The position numbers and the translations under genes are program-made. From positions 1 through 28,468 of IMG/VR virus record IMGVR_UViG_3300020362_000095: DNA of 28,468 nucleotides; one strand, 5' to 3'. Below the pieces are notes generated by a model. The model searched no databases and was not told the DNA's origin. It saw only the letters and a list, made by a program, of their open reading frames with translations. Each line of letters begins with the position of its first letter. Position 1 is the first letter of the stretch. Below are positions 1,344 to 23,064 of this stretch, one piece after another. Origin of the DNA: a virus (taxonomy: Duplodnaviria > Caudoviricetes).

Positions 1344-1378
1344 TACTAACTATACCAATAAATATCTTTTTACACTAG

Positions 1379-3916: not shown

Positions 3917-4200
3917 TATGATAAGAAAATTGTTAGTTTATTTCCAGAACCAGTAAATCCATGAATATAAGCACCATTCTCTGCTAAGATTCCTTGATCT
4001 GGTATGTTTAATGTATGTAAGCCTGTAGGAAAACTCTGAACCAATAAATTAGCGCCACCATTACCATCTTTGATGGTCAGGACTCCTGCTGCATTTCCAA
4101 ATATTACAACTTGTCTTATTCTTGTTCTATCCGGACCTACTACAGCCGCACTATCACCTTGGTTAAAGTTAAAGGCTTTGACATCTGAACGACCTGCCAT
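3916..4200 (-). CDS. Small beta-rich virion protein
   Basis: 94 aa, strong AGGAGG RBS, in the structural cluster. Confidence 0.65.
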   Translation of the reverse strand: MAGRSDVKAFNFNQGDSAAVVGPDRTRIRQVVIFGNAAGVLTIKDGNGGANLLVQSFPTGLHTLNIPDQGILAENGAYIHGFTGSGNKLTIFLS

Positions 4201-4212
4201 TAAAACCTCCTA

Positions 4213-4695: not shown

Positions 4696-4760
4696 TTTTA
4701 TCTCCTTGTCTTGGCAAATGTCGAAGTTAATTCTTCGTCAAGGTAATTATAGTATATATG

Positions 4761-4785
4761 AAAAAGGGCGGTTTGTAACCGCCCT
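4761..4785 (-). terminator. Rho-independent terminator after the major capsid gene
   Basis: AGGGCGGTT-tgt-AACCGCCCT perfect stem with an A5 run (U tail on minus) 13 nt past the MCP stop. Confidence 0.85.
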
Positions 4786-4797
4786 CAGTCAATTTAT

Positions 4798-5703
4798 TTA
4801 GGCTCCCGGTGAACCAAACATTCCGAGAGGATCTGATACACCAAATGAATATCTCTCACGGGCTTTGTATCTGACATTACCTGTGTTGAAATCTCCATCC
4901 ATTGATGTTGACATTGGTGTTCTTACAAACATCTTCATTCCATTAGGGACATCAGTTGTTAAGAAAAATGCATCAGTATCTGTTAAATAGTGATTAACAG
5001 AAAAACCCTCTGGTATTGAACCATTGGTTCTGATTGCATTTGTATCATTATCTGATGTTCCAACTCTTAGATCTGATTGCAAGATCCTTGTTGCAACAAA
5101 CATCAAAGCTGGTGGAACAATAAGTTTTCTTGGTCTTGCTGCAATTAACAATCCTCTTTCATCAACGAAAGCTGCAATGTCAATTACTGCTTGCTCAAGA
5201 GAAGTCTCGTTCAAGTCAGCGTTTGTTGTTAGTCTGTTTTTATTGCTACCTCCAGCCACTGTTGGGTGAGCTGTGTTAAACAATGTTACACCATCTCCAC
5301 TTTGAAATGTATCAAAGCCTGTGTTAAGCAATGAAGCAGCTTTTGTCTGCTTTGTGTAAGCCATTGCTCTTGCTAGTGCTTTTGTATAACGAGCTGACAA
5401 TGAATCATAAAGATTATCTTCCATTGCCTCTTCTGTTATTGAAAAGCCCATAGCCACAGTTTCGTGGTTGTATCTTGAAGTAAATGACTCTTGTGCAGTG
5501 TCATATGAAATTGCTGCACCTTCCTGCTTTACAGGAGCTGCACCAAAACCAGATAACTTCACTTCTTCTTCAAAGCTACGCTCTGAGTTTTCTACTTCAT
5601 AAATTTCAGTATGCTCGTCTTCATACTTTTCATATTCCAAGCCAAACAGTGCGTTTAAACCCGGTAACAACTCTTTAAGGAGTTGCGCTCTTGATATAGC
5701 CAT
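4798..5703 (-). CDS. Major capsid protein (HK97 fold, Mu gpT-like family)
   Basis: 301 aa; MAISRAQLLKELLPGL, GDGVTLFNTAHP, PRKLIVPPAL, YKARERYSFGVSDP motifs; AAGGAG RBS; followed by a terminator. Confidence 0.9.
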   Translation of the reverse strand: MAISRAQLLKELLPGLNALFGLEYEKYEDEHTEIYEVENSERSFEEEVKLSGFGAAPVKQEGAAISYDTAQESFTSRYNHETVAMGFSITEEAMEDNLYDSLSARYTKALARAMAYTKQTKAASLLNTGFDTFQSGDGVTLFNTAHPTVAGGSNKNRLTTNADLNETSLEQAVIDIAAFVDERGLLIAARPRKLIVPPALMFVATRILQSDLRVGTSDNDTNAIRTNGSIPEGFSVNHYLTDTDAFFLTTDVPNGMKMFVRTPMSTSMDGDFNTGNVRYKARERYSFGVSDPLGMFGSPGA

Positions 5704-5718
5704 ATTTCAATCTCCTTA

Positions 5719-6321
5719 TTAAGCTGCTGATGGTGCGTTACCAGACACGACACCAATACCAAGTTGATGACCTGTATTGAACTTACATAGCATAATTGGA
5801 AAAGCGGTTCCTTTTTCATCACCATCAAAACCGCCTTTGAAATCTACAATTCTGATTGGTAAAGAAGCTGTATTAGCCGCTGTACTAATATCTAGTGAAA
5901 CTCTAGAAATGCCTAAAGCTGCACTTGATGTTCCTTGTACTAATGCTGCGTTTGCCGCAATATCATCATCATTAACAGTGCCGTCTGCCTGAATTTCAAA
6001 CAATACGTTTGGATCATCACATACATAAGCCATGCCTTCTGTGTGTGCTGCGCCTGACCACTGTTGACTAAAAGTTAATTGTTTAGTGCTGACATCAATA
6101 AATCTGCACCCTAAAAAAATACCTATTGGAGTAGCGGAAGATGTTCCTGCATCTTTTTCAATAGTTGTTGTAGAACCAGCATCTACTAGCTTTACAACAT
6201 CACCGAAACATATTCTTGTTGAATATGATGAAAGTACAGGATACTGACGAAACGAACCATTGTATGTTCCGCCTAAGTTACCTACCGGTCTTAATCCAAA
6301 AGGAGCTGCTGTTGCTGACAT
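5719..6321 (-). CDS. Capsid stabilisation/decoration protein
   Basis: 200 aa, APFGLRPV start, GDVV, DDPNVLFEIQ motifs; immediately upstream of the MCP. Confidence 0.6.
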   Translation of the reverse strand: MSATAAPFGLRPVGNLGGTYNGSFRQYPVLSSYSTRICFGDVVKLVDAGSTTTIEKDAGTSSATPIGIFLGCRFIDVSTKQLTFSQQWSGAAHTEGMAYVCDDPNVLFEIQADGTVNDDDIAANAALVQGTSSAALGISRVSLDISTAANTASLPIRIVDFKGGFDGDEKGTAFPIMLCKFNTGHQLGIGVVSGNAPSAA

Positions 6322-6348
6322 AATTGTCTCCTTAAAATTAAAATTACG

Positions 6349-6783
6349 TTACGAAGTGCGTGTGCTTTTCTCCGGTCTGAGAACTGGCATACGGGGATCG
6401 GATTCCTTTAGAAAACTATTGTCCACAGCCTGCATTTGTGATTTTGCCTGATCGTGTTGATAGTCTCTTCTGGCCTCCATGTTTTCTTTGGAGTTCTTGC
6501 AAAGTAACAATCCTCCAACCTCTACATTACCTTTGAATTTAGAATCAACGTCAGAGATAATCTTTAACTCAGGATGATCTTCTAACTTTACTGGCTCCCA
6601 ACCTTCACGAAATTTAGATGAAACATTAGTCATGTCCGCCTGACCCAGTGATGCAGTTCGTATCCAACGATACTCAACTCCTTCTTGTGGTGCTGGATCT
6701 GGTAAAGCAGATGGTCTTTTCCATGTTACTTTACGTTCTGTATTTTCTCTTGTTTCAAGAGTGCGTGAATCTCGATTAACCAT
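6349..6783 (-). CDS. Conserved head-module hypothetical protein
   Basis: 144 aa; YRWIR, REGWEPV, VGGLLLCK; between scaffold and decoration genes. Confidence 0.7.
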   Translation of the reverse strand: MVNRDSRTLETRENTERKVTWKRPSALPDPAPQEGVEYRWIRTASLGQADMTNVSSKFREGWEPVKLEDHPELKIISDVDSKFKGNVEVGGLLLCKNSKENMEARRDYQHDQAKSQMQAVDNSFLKESDPRMPVLRPEKSTRTS

Positions 6784-7786
6784 TATATGATTCCTTCAAT
6801 AATTGTTGCGCATATTGTTCAGGGGTAAGCCCAAGTCGCTTTGCGAGAGCAATCTGGGTAGAGGTCAATTGCACTTTGCGTGGTTTTTTTGCACTTCGGT
6901 TTACCGGGGCAACCACGTTACCAGCAGGGCGCTGAGGTGCTTCTACCTCTTCTGTCTCAGCACTTTGCTTGTCTTCATTATCTTTATTAAAGTAATCTGG
7001 AAATGCTTTTCTCAAATTACTATCTACTCTTTGATAATACTCTTCTGGATCTAGCAAAGGATTTATTCCTGCCTTTACTAACTTAGCATGCACTCCATGT
7101 GCATATCCAGTCATCTCTTCATAGCCATCCTTGTTGAACCAATCGCTATTTTTGTCCAACCACTCTTTATCTTTTCCTGTAGGCTCTTTAACTTTTTTTT
7201 GTGCAGAGGCCTGCTGAGGAGGAGTGGCAGGCTCATCTGCTCTTACCTGTGGCTTATAATTATCTACTCTAAACTTCTCATTTTGAACTTGGCCTAACTT
7301 TTCCTGTGCATCTACTATTTTATCAGGATCACCAGATTCATATGCTTCTTTGTATTCTTGTCTTGCCTTGGCTAACTGAGCATCAATTCTTCCTTTAGCC
7401 TGCTCTACAAGAACGGACTCTCCATCGTCTAGAGTTTTTCTTAACTTTTTGTTTTCTTCAACTAATCTTTGAGCATGAGCTACGGCTTCATCGCTTGTTC
7501 TTTTGGCTTCTTCTTTCTGCCTTCTCTCTTCATGATACTCGTATTTTAGTTGCTTAATTCTTTTTTGAACATCGCCTTTATAACTGTTGATTTCATCATC
7601 ATCAGGTATATCCGGTTGTGTTCCTTCAGTTCTTTTTGGTCTATTTCTATCTTCTAGAGGTGTGTCATCTACAACCTCAACTTCTACTTCTTCTTTATTT
7701 AAACTTATAGGCTGTTCTTTAGTTTGCTCTATAGTTTCATCTACTTGAATTTCTGATTCAATTTTTTCAGCTGTATTATCACTCAT
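6776..7786 (-). CDS. Capsid scaffolding protein
   Basis: Acidic N-terminus, long coiled coil, C-terminal LTxxQxxLAKRLGLTPEQYA helix; lies between portal and MCP. Confidence 0.75.
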   Translation of the reverse strand: MSDNTAEKIESEIQVDETIEQTKEQPISLNKEEVEVEVVDDTPLEDRNRPKRTEGTQPDIPDDDEINSYKGDVQKRIKQLKYEYHEERRQKEEAKRTSDEAVAHAQRLVEENKKLRKTLDDGESVLVEQAKGRIDAQLAKARQEYKEAYESGDPDKIVDAQEKLGQVQNEKFRVDNYKPQVRADEPATPPQQASAQKKVKEPTGKDKEWLDKNSDWFNKDGYEEMTGYAHGVHAKLVKAGINPLLDPEEYYQRVDSNLRKAFPDYFNKDNEDKQSAETEEVEAPQRPAGNVVAPVNRSAKKPRKVQLTSTQIALAKRLGLTPEQYAQQLLKESYNG

Positions 7787-8154
7787 AGTCTTGTAAATCC
7801 TCTAGGGTCATCGACAACTGCTTCCACAGTGTCATCATTAATTAAACGAAATTCTTCACTTTCAACTTTGAACCTTGTTCCAGAGTAAGATCTAAATATT
7901 ACAAAATCACCCTTTTTGCAATAAGGCCCGTTAGGAAACTTTTGATCATCTTTATATGCGTCTTCTCCCATCTCAATGACAAGACCAACGATTGATGCAG
8001 TTTGTTCTAATTTAGTCGTATTGTCTGGCATGTATACGCCTGACTTCGTTTTTTCTTCAACCTTTGGGATAGCTATTAACAGCTTATAACCTTTCGGCTC
8101 AGGAAGTTTTAATTTTAAATCTTCCTCATAATTTACTTTTTGTGCAGAGTACAT
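7783..8154 (-). CDS. groES: GroES/Cpn10 co-chaperonin
   Basis: PKGYKLLI...EEKTKSGVYMP (mobile loop)...KGDFVIF..YSGT...RLINDDTVEAVV. Confidence 0.9.
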   Translation of the reverse strand: MYSAQKVNYEEDLKLKLPEPKGYKLLIAIPKVEEKTKSGVYMPDNTTKLEQTASIVGLVIEMGEDAYKDDQKFPNGPYCKKGDFVIFRSYSGTRFKVESEEFRLINDDTVEAVVDDPRGFTRL

Positions 8155-8260
8155 CCCTGTTCCTTTTTGCAGTGATTGAGGTTCACAGTTACCTTTGCAG
8201 GCTTAAGCACCTGATTGTCGTTATTATAAATATACACAAGTCTTGACACTTTTGGAAGAC

Positions 8261-8455
8261 CTAATCTTCAATAAATCTTTTTTCTGTTTCTTGTAAAAAT
8301 TCTCTAGCTATGGATAAGCCTTCTATTTTTCCCACAAGTCTTTGATATTCTTCAAAATTTTTTGGCCTGCCAGAGGAAAGATGATCTGTCGTTGCATCCA
8401 TTTCTTCTTGAATTTTTTTTATAACAGGTGTGTAAACTGTCTCATTTCTGCTCAT
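8261..8455 (-). CDS. Small conserved protein after the portal
   Basis: 64 aa; FEEYQRLVGKIEGL helix; overlaps the portal stop. Confidence 0.7.
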   Translation of the reverse strand: MSRNETVYTPVIKKIQEEMDATTDHLSSGRPKNFEEYQRLVGKIEGLSIAREFLQETEKRFIED

Positions 8456-10871
8456 TTTGTAATTGTTCTGCTGCCTGCATAACTATCTTTGCTTCTTCTT
8501 TTTGATCTTTAGAAGCATCTGTCGCTAACTTTGCAGCAATTCTAACACCCTCTCTTTGATTTTCTGATTCTATTCTTTCTTCTTGAACCTTTTGATTCAT
8601 CGCTGCCTTTTGAGCCTCAAGCTCTAGTTTTGCTAAATCCATTTGTTTTTTATGTTCAAGTTCTTTTTCTTTGATAGCTAGTTCTCTTTGCTGTATCTGC
8701 GTTAAAGGATCTTCTTGTAGTTTTTGATTTTCTTGTTGTTGCATTTCTGCTGTGTTTTGTTGCAATAACTTTTCTGCTGCCTCTGAAGCTAATCTTGAAA
8801 GCTCTTCTTCTGCATCTTCTGGTAAAGGCTTTTCTTCATTAGGCATAGCCACACCAAGATTTTTTTCTATTTCTTTTCTGTATTGGAAAGCAACGTGTTC
8901 TGTAATATGCGCTGATAATGCAGCTTGTATTGCTCCTGCAAATGGTGACTGTCCCACAATCTCTTTTAACTTTGGATCATTAGCGGCGGCTAGGTGAACC
9001 TTAATGTGTGCTTCATGATCTTGGTATTTAAATGCTTTTACAGGCTCTTGTTTTAATATTGCCATATTTTCAGTTACAGGATCTGCCGGTTTTATGTCGT
9101 CAGGTAATTTAATAATATCTTTAGCATCCTGTATACCTAAAACTTCTAACATTTGTCTATGTAATTTACCCATGTCATATAGCTGCGGTGCTTGTTGAGC
9201 TAGTTGTAAAGCAGCTTGATACTGCATTACTCTCTGTGACATTGTTGCTGCGTTAGGATCTGACACAGGTATTACATCAACTCTGTCATCAAAGTCTTTT
9301 GTCCTGTCAAAATCACCTTCTATTTCATAAGCATAAGTTCCATCCATATAATCACGAATGACATTAGATAATAATCTTAGCTCATTTTTAAGGGCAGCAT
9401 GTAATCTAGCCTGAACTCCAGACATAACTTTCATTGAACGCTCCATGAGAGCCAGTGTTGTTCCTACTGGCGCTTGCGCGTTGATGTCTCCAACTTGTAT
9501 ATCCGCAACGGAGCCAATCCTTCTCCCCTCGTCAACAATGTTTCCGAGTAATTGGTACAAGACCGAACTTGGTTCCTTGTAAGGAATGAAAGTAATAGCG
9601 TCACGAATTGCACCACCCGGTACGTCAACGTCACGGAACTCACCCGGCATGAGAGGCGAATCATCCCCTTTGATGCGTAAACCCCTAGCTTTAAGACCAG
9701 CCGGTAAATTAGATAAAGTACCAGCATCGATAAGTTGACGAAGAATACTTGTAGCGCTTTTAGCCAACCCACCAATGAGGTGAATGAGGCCTGTACCATA
9801 GAAACCAAGGCCCGGAAGATATCTGTAATGTACGAAGTATTGCCTTTTCTTTTTCTTTTTATCATCTTCATAATAGTTCCTCCTGATAGATAATATGGTT
9901 CTTGATGATTTATCTATCGTGATAACGTATGGTCTGGCTATGCCATCTTCTTCATCAAATGGTTCTGGCATCTCCATATCTACATGCATTTCTAAAAGAG
10001 TATGTCTGTCGTCATCTTCTATTGTCGCTGATTCACCATCAAGCTCATCATATTTTTCTTGTATATCTGACATATCTGGCTCAGGGTCAGGTAATTCTAT
10101 ATCTCTGTAAAATCCATTATCTTGTAGCTTGGCTATGTCATTTGATGATTTTTTCATGACATGGGTGTATCTCTCACATGTCATAAGATCAGAAGCGCCA
10201 TAAGAAACAACAAAATCTTCTGCCGGTACAAACATTGCACATGGCCTTTCCATGATCGGATCATAATAAACCTTTTTGAAAGCAGAACCAGCTAAAGGCA
10301 ACTTAAATAACATCTGCTCTGTTTCATCTCTGTATTCTGTCATCTTTTCAGTAAGAAGATAATTCATTTCATTTTCTACACGAGAAGCCTGCTCTGTTTT
10401 TTCAACAGACATTTTTCCTAGTATTTTAGTTCTTACTGGTCCGGATGCAGGGAATATCTCTCCCATAGCTTGTGCCTGAAACCTTACAATTGACTCTGTT
10501 AATATAGGATGAAACACGCCAGATGAACCTGCCCAAGGCTGCTGTCTTTCTTCTATCTTCATTCCAAGAAGATCTAATCCTTTGACATAACTCTTTGCCC
10601 ATTCACTTCTTGACTGTCTGTCAGAATTAAAACTTGATATTAACTCACCAGCCATTTCTCTTAGATCTTGCTCTTCAATTTGCTCCGCTAAATTTGAATC
10701 AAATCCACCACTTAATATTTCTTCTACCTGTTCGCCTGTAAAATCAATGATCATCCCGCCATCTTCTGTTTCAACAGATACTGAATCAGGGTTTTCAACT
10801 TCTATACTTATCTCAGGCTCTGCACTTTCTTTGAAAGTCTGCATGGGTGTCATTGTTTTTTCTACAGCCAT
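8442..10871 (-). CDS. Portal protein (P22 gp1-like)
   Basis: 809 aa after terL; GSAFKKVYYD, FYGTGL, LIDAGTLSN, C-terminal Q/E-rich coiled coil; AGGAG RBS. Confidence 0.9.
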   Translation of the reverse strand: MAVEKTMTPMQTFKESAEPEISIEVENPDSVSVETEDGGMIIDFTGEQVEEILSGGFDSNLAEQIEEQDLREMAGELISSFNSDRQSRSEWAKSYVKGLDLLGMKIEERQQPWAGSSGVFHPILTESIVRFQAQAMGEIFPASGPVRTKILGKMSVEKTEQASRVENEMNYLLTEKMTEYRDETEQMLFKLPLAGSAFKKVYYDPIMERPCAMFVPAEDFVVSYGASDLMTCERYTHVMKKSSNDIAKLQDNGFYRDIELPDPEPDMSDIQEKYDELDGESATIEDDDRHTLLEMHVDMEMPEPFDEEDGIARPYVITIDKSSRTILSIRRNYYEDDKKKKKRQYFVHYRYLPGLGFYGTGLIHLIGGLAKSATSILRQLIDAGTLSNLPAGLKARGLRIKGDDSPLMPGEFRDVDVPGGAIRDAITFIPYKEPSSVLYQLLGNIVDEGRRIGSVADIQVGDINAQAPVGTTLALMERSMKVMSGVQARLHAALKNELRLLSNVIRDYMDGTYAYEIEGDFDRTKDFDDRVDVIPVSDPNAATMSQRVMQYQAALQLAQQAPQLYDMGKLHRQMLEVLGIQDAKDIIKLPDDIKPADPVTENMAILKQEPVKAFKYQDHEAHIKVHLAAANDPKLKEIVGQSPFAGAIQAALSAHITEHVAFQYRKEIEKNLGVAMPNEEKPLPEDAEEELSRLASEAAEKLLQQNTAEMQQQENQKLQEDPLTQIQQRELAIKEKELEHKKQMDLAKLELEAQKAAMNQKVQEERIESENQREGVRIAAKLATDASKDQKEEAKIVMQAAEQLQNEQK

Positions 10872-10880
10872 TAGATACTC

Positions 10881-11087
10881 CTATTTAATTCTTTCCAAAA
10901 TTCTATCTATTTTTTCTTCTAATCTGTTTATTGCAACTGTTACATCATCTCGTTTTGCATAATCTTCTCTTGTTTTATTTAACAATATATCAATCCTTTT
11001 AACTTCTCTTGACTGTGTTCCAAGAAACCATCCTCCACCAAGAACAATTATTCCTATCAATCCATCTATTATATGCGTCATTTCCAT
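10881..11087 (-). CDS. Small membrane/coiled-coil protein
   Basis: N-terminal TM helix, C-terminal INRLEEKIDRILE coiled coil. Confidence 0.65.
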   Translation of the reverse strand: MEMTHIIDGLIGIIVLGGGWFLGTQSREVKRIDILLNKTREDYAKRDDVTVAINRLEEKIDRILERIK

Positions 11088-12608
11088 TTAATAATACTCT
11101 ACAGGCCTTCTATATTTTGGTTCATCATCCCAGTCATCCATAGTTGTTCTTATCCAGCCACCTTGTCTAAACCTTAACAGTGCCTGTGTGGTTGAGTCAA
11201 CTAGGTCATCATGATCTCCTGATGGAAATGATGCACATTCTTCTATAACTTCATCTGCCCAACGTGTAGGTGGACACCACACAACGCCACTTGCAAACAG
11301 ATCCGTGACACTGTTAACTCTTGCTATCTTATCCTGTCCACGGCTCGGTGTAAACTCAGTAACTGGTATTCCCATAGCTCTTAATTCAAAAATTAAGGGT
11401 GATCCTGCCGCTTTAGCCTCAATAATCATCTGATCTGGCTCAAATTCCCAGTATTTTTCGTAAGCTGCACGTTTTAAATCAGGAAATTCTAGTTTTTCTT
11501 TGTATGCATCAAGTAAAATGAGATTTGGCCTCTCATTTCCTTCATCATCAGGGTGATGAAAGATTCCCCAAGTGGTACAGGCGCTATAATCTGCTCTTTG
11601 TGTCTTTAAAAATGCTGTATCCCAAGACTGAATGATGGAATCACAAGGCGGAAGGTCGTCTTTTTCCCATTCTTGCCACCATTCACGCTTAATTAACGCT
11701 CCTTCTTCGGATGTGGGGTCTTGTTGATACTGTGCGTTCCACTTTGAAACGGGTAATTCAGCTCTTAATGCGTCTAATTCTTCCCTTTTCCAAAATTCAG
11801 GCCATAAAGTCTTGTTTGAAGGCAGTATTGCAGGCAGTTGTATCACTTCCCACTCGTTAGAACCCTCTCTTTCGATAGATTTATTAATAATTTGACCTGT
11901 TAAATCTCTTTTGGACCATCTTGTCATCACTAAGATGATAGCACCACCGGGCTGGAGTCTCTGTCTTGGTCCAGATGTGTACCATTCATAAACTTTGTCA
12001 TAAACTTCCGGGTTATAATCACCCATTGTGGCCTCCTGCTCGGAGTGGGGGTCATCGATAATTAAAATATCAGCACCCTTACCCGTTACCGCACCACCTA
12101 CACCTATCGCAAAGTAGTCACCACGTTTATTTGTATTCCATCTACCTGCCGCTTTAGAATCAGCAGACAGTTCTATGCCCGGAAATACTTCTTGGAAGTC
12201 TGTGTTCTGTATTAGGTTACGAACTTTTCTACCAAACCCAACAGAAAGCTCTGCTGTGTGAGCTGTTTGAATAACTTTCTTTTCTGGATATTTACCTAAA
12301 AACCATGCGGGGAAAAGATAGCTTGCAAATTCTGACTTGGTATGACGGGGTGGCATGTTGATTATCAATCTTTTTAAATCACCCCGGGCCACCTTTTCAA
12401 ATGCCTCTGCCATAATCTCATGATGTCTTCCATGAATAAAAGAAGGCCACATTAATTTTACAAACGGAAGAAAATTTTCTCTTGCTGTTTCTTTTTCTTT
12501 TACAGATTCATATTCTTCGATTAGGGCAAGTATCTCTTTTTGCTGTTCCGGCGGAAGACCACTTATCTTTTCAAGATTCCCTTTTAATAGATGACTAAGA
12601 TCATTCAT
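11088..12608 (-). CDS. terL: Terminase large subunit
   Basis: Walker A MPPRHTKS, Walker B ILIIDDP, MTRW, nuclease QSWDTA and HDDLVDS; start placed at ATG 12608 overlapping the upstream stop. Confidence 0.95.
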   Translation of the reverse strand: MNDLSHLLKGNLEKISGLPPEQQKEILALIEEYESVKEKETARENFLPFVKLMWPSFIHGRHHEIMAEAFEKVARGDLKRLIINMPPRHTKSEFASYLFPAWFLGKYPEKKVIQTAHTAELSVGFGRKVRNLIQNTDFQEVFPGIELSADSKAAGRWNTNKRGDYFAIGVGGAVTGKGADILIIDDPHSEQEATMGDYNPEVYDKVYEWYTSGPRQRLQPGGAIILVMTRWSKRDLTGQIINKSIEREGSNEWEVIQLPAILPSNKTLWPEFWKREELDALRAELPVSKWNAQYQQDPTSEEGALIKREWWQEWEKDDLPPCDSIIQSWDTAFLKTQRADYSACTTWGIFHHPDDEGNERPNLILLDAYKEKLEFPDLKRAAYEKYWEFEPDQMIIEAKAAGSPLIFELRAMGIPVTEFTPSRGQDKIARVNSVTDLFASGVVWCPPTRWADEVIEECASFPSGDHDDLVDSTTQALLRFRQGGWIRTTMDDWDDEPKYRRPVEYY

Positions 12609-12842: not shown

Positions 12843-12925
12843 CAATATATATAAATATAATATTTATATACTTCTTTAGTATCTATATAAACTTCTTTAG
12901 AATATTTATATATATTATAATTTAT
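12843..12925. repeat. Extremely AT-rich tract with a direct repeat ACTTCTTTAG x2
   Basis: TA-rich; ACTTCTTTAG at 12870-12879 and 12891-12900. Confidence 0.5.
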
Positions 12926-13035
12926 TATACTGGCTTTTTTATTTTTGACAATATAAAAAAAGTAAATTTGTTAAAATTTTGTATTTGAGTGTGCAGAATA
13001 ACGTGCGGCTGTGTGTAGCCACGGCTGTGTCACAT

Positions 13036-13057
13036 GGGTGGGTGTGGGTAGGTGGGG
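13036..13057 (+). other. Canonical G-quadruplex motif
   Basis: GGG-T-GGG-TGT-GGG-TAGGT-GGGG inside an AT-rich intergenic region. Confidence 0.6.
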
Positions 13058-13166
13058 TCAAGCCTAGTACAAAAAAATTTTAGACCGGACACAATCAAAA
13101 AAAATTATAATCGAAAATAGAAATAATAAATGTATCGTGACTAGCTGTAAAACTTCACGTAACTTT

Positions 13167-13712
13167 TTATTTATTAATTATTGTGTTTAGCTTTGTTAAT
13201 AATTCACTTTCAATTTCTGTCGATGTTCTATCTCTTTTATCTTGTATGTTTATATTAGTTTCAAATATTCCTAAATTCTTACCTAACATCTCCAATGCTT
13301 TTAATCTAACGTGATCAGTTATATTTGTATCGTCTGCCATCTGTTCAATCTTCTTTAATATTGTTTCAATTTTACTTTCAGACAGTTTGACTTCATTCAT
13401 GCGATGTAGACGCTGTTTTTGCTCTAATAAATGATTTATAAATATCCCAATGTTATCCTTAGATCTTAATCTACTAGCTAACATTCTTAGAGTGTTTGGC
13501 TTAATATCTTTACTTACATTATAGTTGTTACGATATGCATCTATTAAACTCATGCCTTTTTGACCATTACGCCCTACAACGTCATGACAAAAACCACGCA
13601 TTTTTTCCGTCAAATCTGATCCCATAACTTTATTATTTTTAGTCTTGTTTTTTACTCTACTATCGTTATTTGAAACGAGAGTTAATTTTGTTTTGTTTTT
13701 TTTATCTGACAT
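13167..13712 (-). CDS. terS: Terminase small subunit
   Basis: LTEKMRGFC..V, AYRNNY, ASRL and RLKALEMLGKNLGIF motifs typical of TerS; GAGG RBS; upstream of terL. Confidence 0.8.
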   Translation of the reverse strand: MSDKKNKTKLTLVSNNDSRVKNKTKNNKVMGSDLTEKMRGFCHDVVGRNGQKGMSLIDAYRNNYNVSKDIKPNTLRMLASRLRSKDNIGIFINHLLEQKQRLHRMNEVKLSESKIETILKKIEQMADDTNITDHVRLKALEMLGKNLGIFETNINIQDKRDRTSTEIESELLTKLNTIINK

Positions 13713-13877
13713 TTTTATACCTCTTAAAACTTTACGTAAACTTTTGGTCTGATGTTCTAACGACCTGCGACATTTAACTTATAGTAACATTTAATAATCT
13801 ATTCGTGTAGGTCATGAAGATAATTAAATTAATTTCAGAAAAAATCAAACCTCATTCGTAATAATTTATAACAACTA

Positions 13878-14165
13878 ATGGAGATCAAATTGCATAACAT
13901 AAAATTAAACGACAAAGTAAAGACCAATCAAATTACATCAAGACCATTAAAAGAAAATGAAATTGTCAGATATATGAAATTACCGGATGGTCAAAAAATA
14001 GGTCTTAATAAAAATGGACATTCTAATGTTAATATTCGTGAATGGGATATTGATGCAAATTGGATTGTTAAAAAAATAACTGAAAAAAGAATTGGATTAG
14101 TTCACAAAAATAATCCTCATGGCAAACCTAATTTATATCTTGCCCCTCATTTTATTAAAAAGTGA
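13878..14165 (+). CDS. Hypothetical early protein
   Basis: 95-aa ORF divergent from terS; weak RBS. Confidence 0.5.
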   Translation: MEIKLHNIKLNDKVKTNQITSRPLKENEIVRYMKLPDGQKIGLNKNGHSNVNIREWDIDANWIVKKITEKRIGLVHKNNPHGKPNLYLAPHFIKK

Positions 14166-14307
14166 TGGGCAAATATTGCATAAATAATGGAATGGCATTT
14201 AATGGCGTTTTAAGCGTCATACAGCCACGAAACGATATTCATGTATGTTATTACATATTTCTTTATTTCAGCGTTTTTGTTAGTGACATTGACTTTGGTA
14301 AGGTTAG

Positions 14308-14347
14308 GTAAAATAAAGTAAAATAATGTTAAATAAAGTAAATTATA
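14308..14347 (+). repeat. Four tandem 10-bp units (GTAAAATAAA-like), phased A-tracts upstream of a promoter
   Basis: GTAAAATAAA / GTAAAATAAT / GTTAAATAAA / GTAAATTATA. Confidence 0.7.
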
Positions 14348-14350
14348 TAC

Positions 14351-14379
14351 TTGTTATTTAGAATGAAAATTATTATATA
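14351..14379 (+). promoter_or_regulatory. Sigma70-type early promoter
   Basis: TTGTTA-17 nt-TATATA; predicted start ~14386 coincides with the 5' end of the long stem. Confidence 0.6.
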
Positions 14380-14386
14380 TAGAGAG

Positions 14387-14564
14387 ACAGCCTCTGTACG
14401 GCAAAACTGAACTGATTAGTGAAACATGGTATCAGTAGGAGTTGGGATGCTCCTCGAATTTTGGCAAGGATACAAAAGACACTCACAGCCCCCACAATGA
14501 AGATCGATGAGATTGCTCTATGGGCTAGGTAGGAACTACTAATGTTTTGCCCTATAGAGGCTGT
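14387..14564 (+). ncRNA. Putative ~180-nt multibranched structured RNA
   Basis: 21-bp closing stem 14387-14407/14544-14564 enclosing five hairpins; no credible ORF inside. Confidence 0.65.
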
Positions 14565-14597
14565 TACAATTCAATCAAAATAAAATGGAGAACTATT

Positions 14598-14786
14598 ATG
14601 GAAAAAAGAACTTGGCAAATATCTTGGTTCATTGGTCATGGCAAAACTAAATCAGTTTTGGAAACAGTAGATCCATCTGACTATGTTGATAAATACATGG
14701 AGAGGGAGACACTAAGGGATGAGGCTTATACAAAGTATAAATTACATCCGGAAAAAATGGTCATGATCAAAGAATATAAGCAATAG
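14598..14786 (+). CDS. Small early hypothetical protein (62 aa)
   Basis: GGAG RBS at 14587 and ATG 14598 (start corrected from 14547). Confidence 0.7.
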   Translation: MEKRTWQISWFIGHGKTKSVLETVDPSDYVDKYMERETLRDEAYTKYKLHPEKMVMIKEYKQ

Positions 14787-14794
14787 GAGAGACT

Positions 14795-14938
14795 ATGAAA
14801 AAATATACTTTCAAAGTAACGATCGAGGGAATGAATGGATACCTCACATATACAGTTAAGGCGAACTCAAAAGATGAGGCTGTCCAAAAAGTATACGATG
14901 ATGCTGAGAAATTGCCCACAATCGTTTATGATATCTAA
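14795..14938 (+). CDS. 47-aa early microprotein (below ORF-track cutoff)
   Basis: AGGAG RBS; MKKYTFKVTIEGMNGYLTYTVKANSKDEAVQKVYDDAEKLPTIVYDI*. Confidence 0.75.
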   Translation: MKKYTFKVTIEGMNGYLTYTVKANSKDEAVQKVYDDAEKLPTIVYDI

Positions 14939-15020
14939 TGCACTAATTAGAGCAGTAGTTATTACTGCTCTTGCTAGTTCATTGGGAACTACTGCAACAT
15001 TAAAAACCAAGGAGGTACTA

Positions 15021-15653
15021 ATGCAGAAAAACAAAACTTTGATATCAGATGATATCGTTAAACAAATCGCTGAACAAGAGCAACAGCATAATGTTTTAAA
15101 GGGATCTAATAAGCAAAACTCTTCTGAGATGAGTGCGATTAGATTAGATCAATATGCTACAGCGATGATCCCAATTAATCAGATCGCAAGAACTGATACC
15201 GGCAATATTTCAGAGGATGCAACCAATGAATTATTGACCACATTCCAAGTTCGATGCGACATGACAAAAGGTCAAGCTGATCTTTTTAAACGTAATTGTG
15301 TCTTGTTTACTAACAAGCATGACTTACCAAAAAGTAATTTGACCAAGACTTACATCATGGATCTATTTAAAAAGTTGGATATCAAATCTCAAGCAAGTTT
15401 GATTAATCACAACAAGGGCGATGATGTTAAGTCTCCATTGGATACAATCATTGATAAGTTGGTAGGTTTAACAACCAAGACCGGAAAGCAAAGGGATGGT
15501 CTGATCATGACAAAAAAAGAGTTAGAAGACTTTGAGATCAGATTAAAAAATAGATTTGAAATTGCTGATAAAGGTCGCAATGCTGTTAAAGATGCAGAGA
15601 CAGAGCAAAAAGTTATTGATGATGTAACTGATGCTTTACTTGATGCATCGTAA
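15021..15653 (+). CDS. Early hypothetical protein (210 aa, helical)
   Basis: AAGGAGGT RBS then ATG 15021; the upstream extension in the ORF track overlaps another gene and a hairpin. Confidence 0.8.
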   Translation: MQKNKTLISDDIVKQIAEQEQQHNVLKGSNKQNSSEMSAIRLDQYATAMIPINQIARTDTGNISEDATNELLTTFQVRCDMTKGQADLFKRNCVLFTNKHDLPKSNLTKTYIMDLFKKLDIKSQASLINHNKGDDVKSPLDTIIDKLVGLTTKTGKQRDGLIMTKKELEDFEIRLKNRFEIADKGRNAVKDAETEQKVIDDVTDALLDAS

Positions 15654-15750
15654 TCGAATGTACAACTTTGCACAGATCTTAATGGTCTGTGCATGATTGT
15701 CCATCCGGACAGCCATGAAAATGGTTTAATCAAAAATAAGGAGTATTGAT

Positions 15751-16827
15751 ATGCGAATATCAGAAGTAAAAAATGTAATGCAAAGTGTAATAATCCAAAA
15801 CTACGAGAATATAAAAAAGGGAGCAAGTAAAGACAGATTGATCGCTTTGTATATTCAAGGTGGTGTTGGTCAAGGCAAGACCTCAGCAGTTAGATCTATG
15901 ACTACAGATCAGCTTATCCTCGATGCTGTCCAAAGAATATTTGGTGTTAAAGTTGATAAGTTAGGTTTTAATAACTTAGGTTTAGCAATGTTTGATCCGG
16001 CAGAATTAGCCGGTTGGTGTGTGCCTAATGCAGATCAACAAAGCATGACTAGGCTTAGACCGGAGTTCTTGCCAAAAGATGGCTTTGGAATTTTATTTGT
16101 TGACGAGGTGGCTCAAGCTACTTTGATGCACCATAATATTTTTGGTCAGCTTGTAGATGAAAGAAGATTAGGTAATCATTACTTAGGCGATGGTTGGATA
16201 ATCATATCGGCAGGCAATAGGCTCAAGGATAAAGCCGGAAGTAACAAGCTTCCATCACAGCTTAGAGATAGATTTACATATTTAGATCTAGAAATAGATC
16301 TTGACGATCTATTAAAATACTATGCTGAAAATAATGTAGATCCAAGGATTAGCAGTTGGCTTAAATTTGACGATCAGTATTTATATGAGTTTGACGTAAA
16401 TGCTGACAGCAACTGTACACCTAGATCAGTTGAAAGAGCATCAACCTTAATGAATTTAGGCTTGGACAGCTTATCTCTTAGAGGTGTATTGAGTGGTCAA
16501 ATTGGAGAAACAGCATCCGGATCTCTTATCGCTCACATGAAATTGTATGATAAGCTACCGGACTTTGACAGCTTAGTTAAAGATCCAAGTAATACAGCAA
16601 TACCGGAAGACAGAGGAGTGCTGTATGCTCTTTGTGGATCATTGGCAAGTAAGATGACTATGGAGAATTGTTCTCCAATTCTCACTTATATGCAGAGAAT
16701 ACCGGAGCAAGAGTATATGGCTTTCATGCTTAAAGATGCAGTAATGAGAAATAAAACCTTAGTGACTAGTCCGGCAATGAAAGCTGTCTTGGGATCTCAA
16801 GGTAAGTTAAAAGACTTGTTACTTTAA
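15751..16827 (+). CDS. MoxR-type AAA+ ATPase
   Basis: Walker A GGVGQGKT, Walker B ILFVDE, sensor-1 SAGN, Arg finger LRDRF, sensor-2 TPRS; AAGGAG RBS. Confidence 0.9.
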   Translation: MRISEVKNVMQSVIIQNYENIKKGASKDRLIALYIQGGVGQGKTSAVRSMTTDQLILDAVQRIFGVKVDKLGFNNLGLAMFDPAELAGWCVPNADQQSMTRLRPEFLPKDGFGILFVDEVAQATLMHHNIFGQLVDERRLGNHYLGDGWIIISAGNRLKDKAGSNKLPSQLRDRFTYLDLEIDLDDLLKYYAENNVDPRISSWLKFDDQYLYEFDVNADSNCTPRSVERASTLMNLGLDSLSLRGVLSGQIGETASGSLIAHMKLYDKLPDFDSLVKDPSNTAIPEDRGVLYALCGSLASKMTMENCSPILTYMQRIPEQEYMAFMLKDAVMRNKTLVTSPAMKAVLGSQGKLKDLLL

Positions 16828-16898
16828 TCAACTTGGTATGTGGTATCCTGTAATGGGATACCACGACAAAACTTTACGTAATTTTTTAGGAGTTATTA

Positions 16899-18116
16899 AT
16901 GCAAGATTTAAAATTAGAAGATAAGTTCTCAAAGATAAGAATACAATTACTTTGGGATAGAGATGATAAAGGTCATGCCTTTTGGGGCATCATGTTAGCT
17001 AAAATGAAAATTATTGAGAATAATAAATTTGATACTTGTGCAACTGATGGCAGAGACATTTTTTATAATCGTCAATATTGTGAAAGCCTATCATTCGAGC
17101 ATTTAAAAGGTGTTATTGTTCACGAGGTTAAGCATAGGGCATTGATGCATCATGTAAGGCAACAGCATAGAGACACGACAGCATGGAATGTAGCTTGTGA
17201 TTTATCTGAAAATCCTATTATCATTGATGCCGGTTTACAGTTGCCGGATGGTGTATTGCTTGATCCAAAGTTTAAGGGATGGAGTGCAGAGAAAATTTAT
17301 AATGTGATTTATCCTCAAATCCAACAGCACATGAAGAAAATGCAAATGTCTGCAAGTGGTGCAAGTGACGATGGACAAAATGGTCAAGGCGAGCAACCAA
17401 GTTGGTTACAGCCTCAATCATGGGGCAATATCGTTGATAATGTCTGCGACAAATTGTCTCCATCTGAGTTAAAAGAAGAAGAGGCTAGTGTTAGGGAAGA
17501 TATTTTCCAAGCAGTACGTCAAGCTAAGGATCGAGGCACAGTTCCGGCAGAGATCAAAAAAATGATTGATAGAATGAAGAGGGCAGAAATAGATTGGGAA
17601 GATGTAATTCAACGTCATGTCCAAGGCGATGTTCCTCATAATTTTACCTATCGTAAGATCCACAGAAAATTTTATTATAATAATAATATCATTGCTCCAA
17701 CTATTGATTATGTTGGCTGTGGTCATGTAGTTGTTGGTGTCGATAGTTCCGGATCTGTCACAGATAAAGAACTACAATTATTTTTAGGTGGTCTTAATGC
17801 TTTGTCATTAGAACTTAAACCTAAATCTGTAACGATCATAACTTGCGACAGCAAAATTCAAAATGTCTATAAGTTTGAGCAAGGCGAAGAGATCACTAAA
17901 ATTTCTGCTGATGGCAGAGGTGGAACGTGTGTCATGCCGGTGTTCAATTACATTGAAGAACATGACTTAGATGTAGACAGCTTTATCTATTTTACTGATA
18001 TGGGAGTGCATGACTTTCCGGAAGAAGAAATGCCATATCCGGTTCTTTGGGTCAGCACAGATCTTGACAGCGATAAAGCACCAATTGGTCAAACTACATA
18101 TCTAAAGGTTGCTTAG
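16899..18116 (+). CDS. HExxH metallopeptidase fused to a VWA domain (DUF2201-type)
   Basis: ATDG, HEVKH, WNVACD; MIDAS DSSGS, GRGGT, FTD; adjacent to the AAA+ ATPase. Confidence 0.88.
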   Translation: MQDLKLEDKFSKIRIQLLWDRDDKGHAFWGIMLAKMKIIENNKFDTCATDGRDIFYNRQYCESLSFEHLKGVIVHEVKHRALMHHVRQQHRDTTAWNVACDLSENPIIIDAGLQLPDGVLLDPKFKGWSAEKIYNVIYPQIQQHMKKMQMSASGASDDGQNGQGEQPSWLQPQSWGNIVDNVCDKLSPSELKEEEASVREDIFQAVRQAKDRGTVPAEIKKMIDRMKRAEIDWEDVIQRHVQGDVPHNFTYRKIHRKFYYNNNIIAPTIDYVGCGHVVVGVDSSGSVTDKELQLFLGGLNALSLELKPKSVTIITCDSKIQNVYKFEQGEEITKISADGRGGTCVMPVFNYIEEHDLDVDSFIYFTDMGVHDFPEEEMPYPVLWVSTDLDSDKAPIGQTTYLKVA

Positions 18117-18140
18117 TGCCACTTTTGGAGAATTTCGAGG

Positions 18141-18197
18141 CTCTAGGATGGTCACACAGAGGCGAAACGATATCCCCATGTGTGATTATACCTAGAG
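18141..18197 (+). other. Long hairpin whose loop motif CGAAACGATAT is shared with 14218-14247
   Basis: CTCTAGG/CCTAGAG plus ATGGTCACACA/TGTGTGATTAT stems. Confidence 0.65.
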
Positions 18198-18207
18198 ATT
18201 TTCGTAT

Positions 18208-18260
18208 GCTGATATAGGAATGTGTGTTCCTACTGATGATCTCGAAAGAGTGAAATCAGC
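18208..18260 (+). ncRNA. Type III hammerhead ribozyme
   Basis: Stem III GCTGAT/ATCAGC, cleavage triplet AUA (after 18214), stem I TAGGAA/TTCCTA with loop TGTGTG, core CTGATGA, stem II CTC-GAAA-GAG, core GAAA; U-U at positions 10.1/11.1 is non-consensus. Confidence 0.85.
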
Positions 18261-18290
18261 TAACTAATATCATTATTTATGGAGTAACTA

Positions 18291-19307
18291 ATGCAATATG
18301 ATATAGAAAAAAATAATTGGGCAAAGATATCCCATTCCAAAGTTTTACAAGAACAATATATTTTAAGGAGTTATTTAAACTTTCTTAATCATGGATGTAA
18401 AAGTTTTGGATTTAATCAAAATCAATTAGTCCAATTAAAAAAGAGTAGTGCCACTTATTTAGCTACAAGTGGTTCAGCTAATCCATTAACTGACGATGAG
18501 AAAAATTTCATCGAGATGTTTTCAAGAGGAACTAATCATTATCATAATCATGGATTAGAAAGTATCTCAAGCTGTGCTGAGGCTGTCAGACAAATTAGAA
18601 GAAAGCAAAAACATAAAAGTTCTATTTATTCTAATAAGGTTGATGGTCAAAAAGTTTTTAGAAAAGAACGTGAATACACTCATGGATTTTTTAATGGGCA
18701 ATCAGTTCATAAAAAGTTTGAGACATTATCTCAATGCTTTGCACAGAAATGGTGGAGAGATAAGCAATCAAGAACCAATATTATTATTAAGGTTGATGCA
18801 CTCTCACAGAAAATTTCTTACGAGAAAGCTGAAAGAGGCAGAGCCGGTAATTGGAACTATAACAGCGATGAAAGAAATACATTAATTTTAACTCCATCGT
18901 GGTTTAAAAATGTATTCATGAAAGGCTTGGCAACCACAATATATAAAAGCAAAACAGCATTTATTGCTAAAGCTAATCCTATTGAGGTATCAGAAAAGAT
19001 TAAGTCTCAAAATTTAAATGCTTATGTCGTTGACGTTGTTACTTGTTACGATGGCATTATTGACGTTGAGCATGATCTTTACTGCTTGGCTTATGAAAGC
19101 AAACCATCAGAACAGCTTAGTGTTCACGATGATTTTGGTGGTAACGTGCCATTGCCTCAAGGAGAGGCTCATAAGATGGGTCTGACCAATAATGTTATCT
19201 ACACTCCGGCAGAGACAATTAATTCTGTGTCTTCTAATTTTCGTAGGGCAGAAAATGTCATGAGTGGCAGAGTTCAAAAAAATATACTTGATGCTATGGG
19301 AGTTTAA
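18291..19307 (+). CDS. Early hypothetical protein (338 aa)
   Basis: GGAG RBS; long ORF with no recognisable motif; starts 30 nt after the hammerhead. Confidence 0.8.
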   Translation: MQYDIEKNNWAKISHSKVLQEQYILRSYLNFLNHGCKSFGFNQNQLVQLKKSSATYLATSGSANPLTDDEKNFIEMFSRGTNHYHNHGLESISSCAEAVRQIRRKQKHKSSIYSNKVDGQKVFRKEREYTHGFFNGQSVHKKFETLSQCFAQKWWRDKQSRTNIIIKVDALSQKISYEKAERGRAGNWNYNSDERNTLILTPSWFKNVFMKGLATTIYKSKTAFIAKANPIEVSEKIKSQNLNAYVVDVVTCYDGIIDVEHDLYCLAYESKPSEQLSVHDDFGGNVPLPQGEAHKMGLTNNVIYTPAETINSVSSNFRRAENVMSGRVQKNILDAMGV

Positions 19308-19308
19308 A

Positions 19309-19536
19309 ATGGATTATATTTACGATAGAAAATTATTCTTAAATACAGCTAGATGTTATAATATGATGAATGAATATTGGACAGTTTACAAAGCTGTAAA
19401 AAAAGAATTTGGGGATGACGATGAAAAGTTATTCACGAATAAAATAAGAGAAAGATTTTATCCTATGGTAAAAGAAAAAGTTTTGATGGCAAAGAAAAGA
19501 GCTATCAAAAAGAATTGGGGGAAAGATCACTCCTAA
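19309..19536 (+). CDS. Small hypothetical protein (75 aa)
   Basis: GGGAG RBS then ATG 19309 just after the upstream stop. Confidence 0.7.
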   Translation: MDYIYDRKLFLNTARCYNMMNEYWTVYKAVKKEFGDDDEKLFTNKIRERFYPMVKEKVLMAKKRAIKKNWGKDHS

Positions 19537-19537
19537 A

Positions 19538-19811
19538 TGTGGGCAAAAGTGGATGCCTAATTGTGAGTGAGGTTTTCTTATATTTTATTTCCCTCATTCA
19601 CAGTTTACGTAAATGCTATGTATCCCTAAATGCACATTCCCCCATTATTTATTTTGATGTGCATCATGGGCAAAGCTGTTGATCTTTTTAAAGCAATAGT
19701 CAGCTAATACATGGAAAGCCACACAAAAAAGGCTCTTAGAGCCTCGTGTAGGGGATGGTCAAGCATCCCCTATACAAAACCTACCAAATAGGCTTTATGC
19801 TCTGTGTGGGC
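19538..19811 (+). ncRNA. Cluster of structured non-coding RNA elements
   Basis: Stems 19559-72/19592-605, 19630-37/19657-64, 19674-78/19701-05, 19616-23/19707-14, 19730-35/19739-44, 19746-57/19764-75, 19719-25/19803-09. Confidence 0.6.
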
Positions 19812-19854
19812 ATATTACAGCCATTAATCATAATTAACAACAAAGGGAGACAAT

Positions 19855-20040
19855 ATGTCTAATACAAAAACAAAAATCAAATCGTGGAAAGATATCCCAC
19901 CAAAAAACTTAACTTATGCTAAAGCTATGCTTGAGATCGAGGGCATAGTAAATGCTGAGATAAGCACCTATAACAAGACCAACAAAGAGATGGCTTTATA
20001 TCTGACTAAATGTTGGCATATTATACAGAGAGGATTTTAA
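19855..20040 (+). CDS. Small hypothetical protein
   Basis: AGGGAG RBS; 61 aa. Confidence 0.7.
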   Translation: MSNTKTKIKSWKDIPPKNLTYAKAMLEIEGIVNAEISTYNKTNKEMALYLTKCWHIIQRGF

Positions 20041-20041
20041 A

Positions 20042-20254
20042 ATGCGAAACAATCCGGATGATTTATCCAATCAATTAATCAATGAAATAAAGAAATGGCT
20101 CAAGCATGAGATTAAACATCAACAGCCTATCGTGGATGGAAAAGAAATTCTTACTGATGGAACTGAGGGCATCTGTGAGGGCAGACATGAATGTGCTAAG
20201 AGTTTATTAAATCAAATAAAAAAATGGGAGAAAAAACTTTATGGAAATGATTGA
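20042..20254 (+). CDS. Small hypothetical protein
   Basis: GAGG RBS; GICEGRHECA motif; 70 aa. Confidence 0.7.
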   Translation: MRNNPDDLSNQLINEIKKWLKHEIKHQQPIVDGKEILTDGTEGICEGRHECAKSLLNQIKKWEKKLYGND

Positions 20255-20402
20255 ATTACTTAGCTTGATATATAAATTACGAGATGATATCGAGAGACAA
20301 AAAGGCATCCATTACGATCACATGAGGCAATTAGATAAAATGATTGATATCGTTAAGCCTCTAGCTGATCATGAGAATAAACTACAAGATCCAAATTTAT
20401 AA
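20241..20402 (+). CDS. 53-aa hypothetical protein (below ORF-track cutoff)
   Basis: GGGAG RBS; MEMIELLSLIYKLRDDIERQKG...QDPNL*. Confidence 0.6.
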   Translation: MEMIELLSLIYKLRDDIERQKGIHYDHMRQLDKMIDIVKPLADHENKLQDPNL

Positions 20403-20443
20403 TAAATTTTTGTCTTGTCGTGATGCCCCCTAAAATATCTAGA

Positions 20444-20465
20444 CAAAACTTTACGTAAAGTTTTG
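20444..20465. promoter_or_regulatory. Perfect 22-bp palindrome CAAAACTTTACGTAAAGTTTTG (best copy of a dispersed operator-like motif)
   Basis: Related copies at 353-368, 13149-13168, 13726-13745, 16868-16887, 19604-19613, 26641-26660, 28433-28452. Confidence 0.8.
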
Positions 20466-20501
20466 AAAAAATTAAGGGCAATCGAGGAGTGATTGCCCTT
20501 A
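20466..20501 (-). terminator. Terminator between convergent operons
   Basis: TAAGGGCAATC/GATTGCCCTTA perfect 11-bp stem with an A-run on the left. Confidence 0.75.
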
Positions 20502-22845: not shown

Positions 22846-23064
22846 CTCCTTGCTATACCTTTCATCATTATTTTAAAATAAAGAAATCGTCAACAAAAAA
22901 ATTTTTTCAAATAAAATTTTCAAATTGCACAAGTATGTAATATAATATAACTACGCATAACGAGGCAGTAATGTTTTTTGTTTCCTTTCTTACATTACTG
23001 CCACCTCCTTTAATATATATAAATATTCTATACAAGTTTATATAACAGTTAATATATATATATA

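Follow-up and report, generated by a model that had tools for sequence, protein, structure and literature searches.

Hammerhead ribozymes have been described on the flanks of genes in the transcripts of phages and prophages (Perreault et al. 2011, PMC3088659), new ribozyme classes have turned up close to phage genes (PMC6765202), and RNAs of T7, T3, and lambda are reported substrates of RNase III (PMC5371410). The present analysis concerns a 178-nt element at positions 14387-14564 of the virus record IMGVR_UViG_3300020362_000095, a 28.5-kb stretch (28,468 nt, 48% complete by CheckV) that is called the window throughout. As in the phage hammerhead account (PMC3088659), the early gene block is punctuated by hammerhead-like motifs, both in relatives and at window 18208-18260; the element itself is larger and lacks a hammerhead core. 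An initial annotation of this DNA had proposed a multibranched RNA of unrecognized family behind the early promoter. A structured RNA of unrecognized family at this place is supported by covariation, by a strand bias in G-U pairs, and by the lack of a match in Rfam. We conclude that the element represents a real RNA family absent from Rfam, that its fold differs from the one first drawn, and that it occupies an unusual, exchangeable position.

Protein-anchored fetches and pattern scans yielded 38 distinct full-length family sequences of 174-253 nt, carried by marine podophage-like contigs with the same TerS/early-operon layout. L215 was left out of the set, its 3' end being cut. The homolog lengths (174, 175, 176, 178, 186, 188, 202, 206, 207, 222, 223, 252, and 253 nt) differ by amounts that are not multiples of three, and the element is therefore non-coding. 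A covariance model of the core scored ≥86 bits on the window and on 8 of 98 further sources, and no other match exceeded 15 bits. The model detected none of the other slot RNAs, and its matches in the stretches fetched from CRP-7, HTVC027P, DSL-LC04, and MinM2 were not credible. The element was present as a single copy in each of two of five whole related records, one of which is complete (59.9 kb).

Rfam 15 gave no matches in the window or in 13 homolog loci, and at E ≤ 2 no model matched the element in any of 16 loci, in line with the initial failure to recognize the family. The best score over the element (E 8.4) was to a eukaryotic long noncoding RNA model and is not credible. No Rfam riboswitch family matched the element, and ARAGORN found no tRNA or tmRNA genes in the window. 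A blastn search of positions 14200-15100 against 50,697 phage records returned 10 short chance matches. Likewise, only 11-15-nt chance matches were found as antisense or guide targets in the window or in G001. A reverse transcriptase domain (PF00078), as expected of a retron, was found in none of the five related records, two of which carry the element. The comparative fold is branched rather than a rod with a central bubble and has no Rfam 6S match, unlike a 6S RNA mimic. No type I or III hammerhead pattern occurs inside the element, and the word CUGAUGA is present in one clade only because helix P6 varies. A CsrB/Rsm-type sponge would need several conserved GGA loops; only the P4 UGGGA loop is conserved, and the other two GGA arms are 36% and 47-61% paired. 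Pfam models for RNA polymerase, RNase III, Ro60, RtcB, and CsrA gave no match in the G001 ORFs scanned (64 of 74) or in 49 window ORFs. Several other candidates were rejected. Nine pattern matches in GTDB genome contigs all lacked the rest of the fold and were due to chance, as was L122; matches at 12 gut-contig loci (23-24 bits) were pattern-selected, 74 nt long, and without P2 or P3. Word-level likenesses to the cobalamin, SAM-I, SAM-V, glmS, pistol, and group I motifs misfit in order or conservation and had no Rfam match. A literature search, with most subscription papers outside its coverage, found no description of the family or the slot and nothing useful on the promoter consensus.

The comparative fold comprises the following features, all on the + strand.

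14387..14407, +: 5' strand of the closing stem P1 (92% of cells paired; 7 pair-keeping double changes, 3 not)
14544..14564, +: 3' strand of P1 (from folding and alignment)
14412-14414 with 14486-14488, +: P2a, CTG/CAG (100% paired; CG/GC and UA/CG/AU swaps)
14419-14421 with 14480-14482, +: P2b, GTG/CAC (71% paired; the window clade is one column off in the alignment)
14422..14428, +: A-rich internal loop AAACAU, opposite AAGA at 14476-14479 (conserved in alignments A1 and A2)
14429..14473, +: P3, GTATC 14429-14433/GATAC 14469-14473 (97% paired; both-side changes in 5 of 7 pairs; 8 pair-keeping double changes, 2 not)
14437..14454, +: P4 hairpin, arm 2 of the initial annotation, with an invariant UGGGA loop (outer 4 bp 100% paired)
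14444..14491, +: pseudoknot (predicted) between the P4 loop bases GGG 14444-14446 and CCC 14489-14491 (possible in 35/35 sequences, invariant)
14492-14494 with 14521-14523, +: P5a, CCA/TGG (invariant)
14499-14500 with 14517-14518, +: P5b (GA/TC here, TC/GA elsewhere)
14502-14505 with 14511-14514, +: P6, GATC/GATT, with a GAUGA loop (12 pair-keeping double changes, 1 not)
14528..14540, +: variable, clade-specific hairpin, formerly arm 5 (from the minimum-energy fold and pairing across homologs)

Alignment A1 contained 35 of the 38 distinct sequences and alignment A2 contained 20. Unprompted, RNAalifold recovered P1, P2a, P3, P5a, P5b, and P6, with 20 of 37 predicted pairs changing on both sides. 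The comparative model adds P2b, P4, and the pseudoknot to these helices and is drawn from the same sequences on which it is scored. In it 94.1% of cells are paired, compared with 82.0% in shuffled and 33-49% in slid controls, and 24 of its 52 pairs changed on both sides. Placed on a tree, pair-keeping double changes outnumber other double changes in P1 (7 to 3), P2a (3 to 0), P2b (2 to 1), P3 (8 to 2), P4 (4 to 0), P5b (2 to 0), and P6 (12 to 1). The P4 and P5b events are not independent, because most of them separate the window clade from the rest; at P4, for example, AGGA/TCCT in the window stands against CCTA/TAGG in most homologs. In an unbiased scan, four of the five column pairs with four pair types lay in the model. 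As read from the alignment, then, compensatory changes support the closing stem, the nested P2-P3-P4 arm, and the GAUGA-capped arm.

P1 is 20-23 bp long (20 bp plus one mismatch in the window and 23 modeled pairs in the alignment), and P1 with its 5' motif goes with the core in 140 of 141 hits, the one left over being truncated where its contig stops. P3 encloses both P4 and the site at which an extra arm is inserted in homologs. The strand CAG-CCC-CCA at 14486-14494 could serve three consecutive helices: P2a, then the pseudoknot that it would form with the loop of P4, and then P5a. Since the GGG:CCC pseudoknot and P5a are invariant and offer no covariation, they are plausible but unproven. 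At modeled pairs the alignment holds 108 G-U cells compared with 13 A-C cells, an excess that fixes the + strand and bears out the earlier argument, made from a single G-U pair, for an RNA over a DNA cruciform.

The closing stem was confirmed as first described, with 12 + 8 bp, one C-C mismatch, and one G-U pair. The minimum-energy fold of the 178-nt element, which contains this stem and all five arms first proposed, has an energy of -60.1 kcal/mol (z -4.0), a value reached by none of 200 shuffles. Folding energy cannot fix the strand because the minus strand folds equally well (z -4.7). The five arms all exist as complementary words in the minimum-energy fold, but arms 1, 3, and 5 are unsupported by the 35 homologs. 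Specifically, the five-arm structure scores 75% of cells paired across these homologs; arm 1 (ACTGAT/ATCAGT) is paired in 54%, arm 3 (TTTTG/CAAAA) in 36%, arm 5 (GTAG/CTAC) in 47-61%, and arm 4 (AGCCC/GGGCT) in 83% of cells, and only the outer 4 bp of arm 2 (AGGAGT/GCTCCT) hold, in 35/35. The five-arm junction is mostly a folding artifact. The comparative fold has instead two large arms, which the model indicates are probably joined by the pseudoknot.

The element lies between a promoter-like motif and a short linker.

14350..14378, +: predicted early promoter CTTGTT-N17-TTATAT (motif in 30 distinct upstream regions)
14565..14597, +: A/C-rich linker and ribosome-binding site (RBS), outside the modeled fold (from sequence; similar linker in homologs)

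Across the 30 distinct upstream regions the motif takes the form (C/T)TTG(T/C/A)(A/T/C)-N17-NTATAT. It was not among the results of an E. coli-type promoter scan and presumably resembles alphaproteobacterial sigma-70 promoters. The claim that the element is transcribed first has to be qualified, in that an accessory ORF on the same strand lies upstream of it at 13878-14165 in the window. In 7 of the 30 upstream regions, the stem starts ∼35 nt after the -10-like box rather than at the predicted transcription start. Its end before the first RBS was correctly placed; the RBS (GGAG, 14587-14590) is 22 nt past the closing stem. Across the family the element is thus non-coding, behind a promoter-like motif, and upstream of unrelated first genes.

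To survey this position, 59 non-redundant loci (88 before de-duplication) were collected by protein anchoring, each spanning TerS into the early block. Sixteen carry the family, 39 carry other leaders that fall into 20 further blastn clusters (21 clusters in all), and four have no leader by the rule used, which makes the slot look accessory. Rfam gave no match in 17 of the surveyed slot loci. Close relatives exchange the family RNA for unrelated leaders. Over their first 328 nt L011 and L012 share 95% identity, beyond which they are unrelated through the RNA, and the near-identical phages L011 and L014 differ exactly across the slot. In L036 and L037, positions 1-314 are 99% identical and those from 503 onward 98% identical, and nothing matches in the stretch that separates them; L061 and L062 have 96% identity over 1-304 and differ across the slot. 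The pair L076 and L077, by contrast, keeps 74% similarity over part of the slot and is no clean swap. A three-sequence fold of the L011-type leader had poor overlap and was not used. Among the 16 family loci the first downstream ORF has, by eye, roughly eight unrelated N-termini. The RNA is therefore not tied to one gene, given this variation and an RBS that lies outside the fold on the A/C-rich linker. The 5' word AG(C/G)CYCAGTTTG(G/C)CA opens both the family and the unrelated leaders of L011, L033, L036, L037, L081, and L089; it is perhaps a recombination junction or a shared 5' signal.

Hammerhead-like motifs are a second regular feature of these early regions, where 67 were found on the sense strand, none on the antisense strand, and two in shuffled sequence. 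One of the 67 lies inside the window ATPase gene and is probably due to chance; one matched RF00163 with E 3e-4, just below the gathering score. Just before the first ORF, a type III motif occurs in 15 of the 43 non-family loci and a type I motif in 3 more; neither type occurs there in any of the 16 family loci. The window has one intergenic motif farther downstream.

18208..18260, +: type III hammerhead-like motif in the gap from the vWA gene to the next ORF (cleavage predicted after 18214)

This has a CUGAUGA/GAAA core, a stem I of 6 bp, a stem III of 5 bp, and a U-U first pair in stem II. In other type III motifs the 3' strand of stem III overlaps the RBS (CAGGAG); these are found in L081, L083, L096, L097, L101, L273, L274, L287, L292, L300, and L302, and some of them have the UAUGAAGA core variant. 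Hammerhead cleavage in such motifs could free the RBS. A second intergenic motif, consisting of GCACWAA, a hairpin, CTTG, and a second hairpin, is present at window 14943-14993 and in gaps of L039, L061, L062, and L036. In the window clade it stands in the place of the type I hammerhead of relatives and has the same GAGCAGT..ACTGCTC hairpin as their stem III; candidate roles for it are an RNase III site or a further ribozyme.

The explanation we favor, at something less than even confidence, is that the element is a stable RNA that is cut from the early transcript and, in trans, decoys a host protein. It is favored because exchangeability, dispensability, and predicted ribozyme release in relatives fit a trans-acting RNA cargo. 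Just after infection the element would likely be transcribed in bulk as a folded RNA, and a host nuclease would likely cut it free of the messenger, through RNase III acting within the 20-23-bp P1 or a cut in the A/U-rich linker. The freed RNA is predicted to bind and occupy a host protein, for example a defense factor. A conserved core with many invariant loop bases and covarying helices would suit a binding surface. Where loci carry a hammerhead-like motif ahead of the first ORF, cleavage there would separate the slot RNA from the message. A wider proposal, which we hold slightly more tentatively, is that the position is a hypervariable slot for RNA-only cargo in which unrelated folded RNAs are exchanged like anti-defense genes, the pseudoknotted family neutralizing a host defense or RNA-binding protein or else forming a new ribozyme class. 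Restriction-type word avoidance fits early-block DNA under host-defense pressure. CCAG occurs 0 times in the early block (6.8 kb) and 65 times in the late block (12.6 kb), and GANTC 0 and 31 times; between 13700-20500 and 1-12600 the counts are 0 and 22 for GGCC, 0 and 17 for GCGC, and 3 and 109 for CCTG. CCGG and GATC are retained at 13700-20500.

A self-cleaving ribozyme of a new class, taking over at this position the job done by the hammerhead in relatives, is unlikely; in its favor, the family loci have no hammerhead-like motif there, compared with 18 of the 43 others with one. L011, of the same clade, has a different RNA plus a hammerhead; the compact core, with its invariant junction bases and likely pseudoknot, the sense-strand excess of hammerhead-like motifs, and the new ribozyme classes near phage genes cited above point the same way. 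However, the element has no Rfam ribozyme match, the 16 family loci are related so that few independent events lie behind the contrast, and ∼22 other leader-bearing loci also lack a hammerhead at this point. That relatives carry a hammerhead in addition to the slot RNA suggests that the slot has another job. It is less probable again that the element only processes or stabilizes the message, with P1 as an RNase III site like those of T7 early RNA or as a shield of the 5' end from nucleases. An RNase III substrate is a near-continuous duplex of about two helical turns. The constant association of P1 with the core, the dominance of P1 in the folding signal, and the RNase III cuts in phage RNAs cited above agree with such a role, which nevertheless leaves unexplained a 115-nt interior kept by compensatory change (8 events in P3 and 12 in P6). 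Also against it, P1 begins ∼35 nt past the -10-like box in 7 of the 30 upstream regions.

The antitermination leader suggested in the initial annotation found little support, and we regard as rather improbable a cis-acting antiterminator, like HK022 put or lambda nut, that lets host RNA polymerase read through the early block. The position immediately after the promoter would be appropriate, and the P6 loop (GAUGA/GAUAA) resembles boxB pentaloops. Set against this, there is no convincing intergenic intrinsic terminator on the + strand between the early genes (two + strand matches, at 18494 and 20597, lie inside ORFs), no boxA-like word was seen by eye, near-identical phages have unrelated leaders in its stead, and four of the 59 loci are leaderless. 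Cis switches in general fit poorly with the variable first gene, the RBS outside the fold, and the lack of a terminator. A riboswitch that senses a ligand and controls the first early gene would account for the 5' position, the likely pseudoknot, and an alternative window fold of similar energy; the absence of a terminator, of RBS pairing, and of an Rfam riboswitch match, together with the unrelated downstream genes, makes it very improbable. We give an equally small chance to an element acting as DNA, whether a cruciform, an injection or packaging signal, or a miniature inverted-repeat element. The terminal inverted repeat, the folding of both strands, and the nearby terminase genes are as such an element would have them, but the G-U excess picks one strand, the interior helices covary, and the element is single copy at a fixed position behind the promoter-like motif.

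Several points weigh against the decoy explanation or the fold on which it draws. P1 accounts for the folding-energy signal; the interior without the closing stem is indistinguishable from shuffled sequence (z +0.47, with 129 of 200 shuffles folding equally well). Of two outcomes that the initial annotation had named as damaging, an interior of ordinary folding energy was thus observed, and a lack of covariation was not. The comparative fold lies 4 kcal/mol above the minimum-energy fold (-56.1 versus -60.1 kcal/mol, the pseudoknot uncounted). Single-column covariation is noisy, as a naive test lets through 145 of 6106 column pairs, of which only 19 belong to the model. Many core invariants were fixed by the search patterns or the 5' filter and are partly invariant by construction, and sampling is shallow, with few clades and a core identity of 81%. 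For many of the other slot leaders, shuffled sequence folds equally well (z across these leaders ranges from +0.7 to -5.6), so that not every occupant is shown to be structured. As no family locus has a 3' hammerhead of its own, release depends on a predicted nuclease cut. Finally, we infer the expression, the release, and the binding partner of the element; no contigs came from two RNA runs, which is neutral as to expression.

The window has a divergent layout, which it has in common with MinM2. The left arm (- strand) carries packaging and structural genes, namely TerS (13167-13712), TerL, portal, GroES, and major capsid. The early block (+ strand) runs from 14598 and contains small ORFs, a MoxR-like ATPase gene, and a DUF2201 vWA/metallopeptidase gene.

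13167..13712, -: TerS (terminase small subunit), the divergent locus anchor (phrog_51, E 5e-9)
13878..14165, +: accessory ORF upstream of the promoter (missing in some relatives, e.g. L015/L021)
14598..14786, +: first early ORF, 62 aa, which varies between genomes (from the ORF list and homolog comparison)

The region of the accessory ORF (13811-14182) is skipped in a contig of run X1. By TerL, the best named relatives are 023Pt_psg01, HTVC027P, DSL-LC04, and HTVC023P (51-56%) and MinM2 (48%). In MinM2, a cultured Synechococcus phage, the corresponding position is taken up by an unannotated, GC-rich gap of 1.1 kb (L253 11473-12563, record 55472-56562), and this phage is a possible experimental model for the slot. 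Four further repeats or conserved stretches were observed. The near-palindrome AAAACTTTACGTAAA(C/G)TTTT recurs at window 13148, 13725, 16867, 20444, and 28432, near several gene starts, is kept in relatives, and is possibly an operator or middle-promoter element. Ahead of both TerL and the primase/helicase region lies a 34-nt inverted repeat (94%; 12884-12917 and 23011-23044), perhaps a promoter type common to the two. Between TerS and TerL, a GC-rich conserved stretch (GTGTGTAGCCACGGCTGTG...GGGTGGG, window ∼12995-13060) that distant relatives also have could mark a packaging site or an end of the genome. A 38-nt stretch at 14216-14253, upstream of the promoter, resembles (74%) another at 18151-18188 that precedes the hammerhead-like motif.

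Should the slot RNAs prove to be effectors acting in trans, phages would be diversifying weapons made only of RNA in the way they do small early proteins; should the family RNA prove to cleave itself, a new class of ribozyme would be at hand. The slot gives a systematic route to further RNA families absent from Rfam. At 178 nt the element can be made in vitro, so that a covariation-backed new fold in a marine phage group is directly testable.

Compared with known systems, the element is like the R sites of T7, a phage whose RNA is reported to be cut by RNase III (PMC5371410), in that a long stem precedes an RBS within an early polycistronic transcript; it differs in that the stem closes a conserved 115-nt multi-helix core and in that its cleavage is a prediction. 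With HK022 put RNA and lambda/P22 boxB it shares a promoter-proximal position and a GNNRA-like pentaloop on a short stem, but it has a much larger fold and no boxA seen, known N-like partner, or terminators to bypass. The CsrB, RsmY, and RsmZ sponges are of similar size (∼180 nt), and the minimum-energy fold of the window has three GGA loops; only one of these, in P4, is conserved in the family. RAGATH-type motifs are orphan phage noncoding RNA motifs, and no Rfam RAGATH model matches the element. The part of the phage hammerhead account considered here (PMC3088659) describes no swappable structured RNA ahead of the first ribozyme, and that of 10.64898/2026.10.21.760802 makes no mention of phages. 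The core words had no match in three supplement files of Fremin et al. 2023 (PMC10690425), the alignments of that work being outside the search. The candidates from IMG/VR in that work are 29-151 nt long, compared with 174-253 nt for the family RNA, and a sub-domain of the latter could be among them. Together with RAGATH-type motifs, they are like the element in kind, as covariation-backed noncoding RNAs located between phage genes near ribozymes and of unassigned function.
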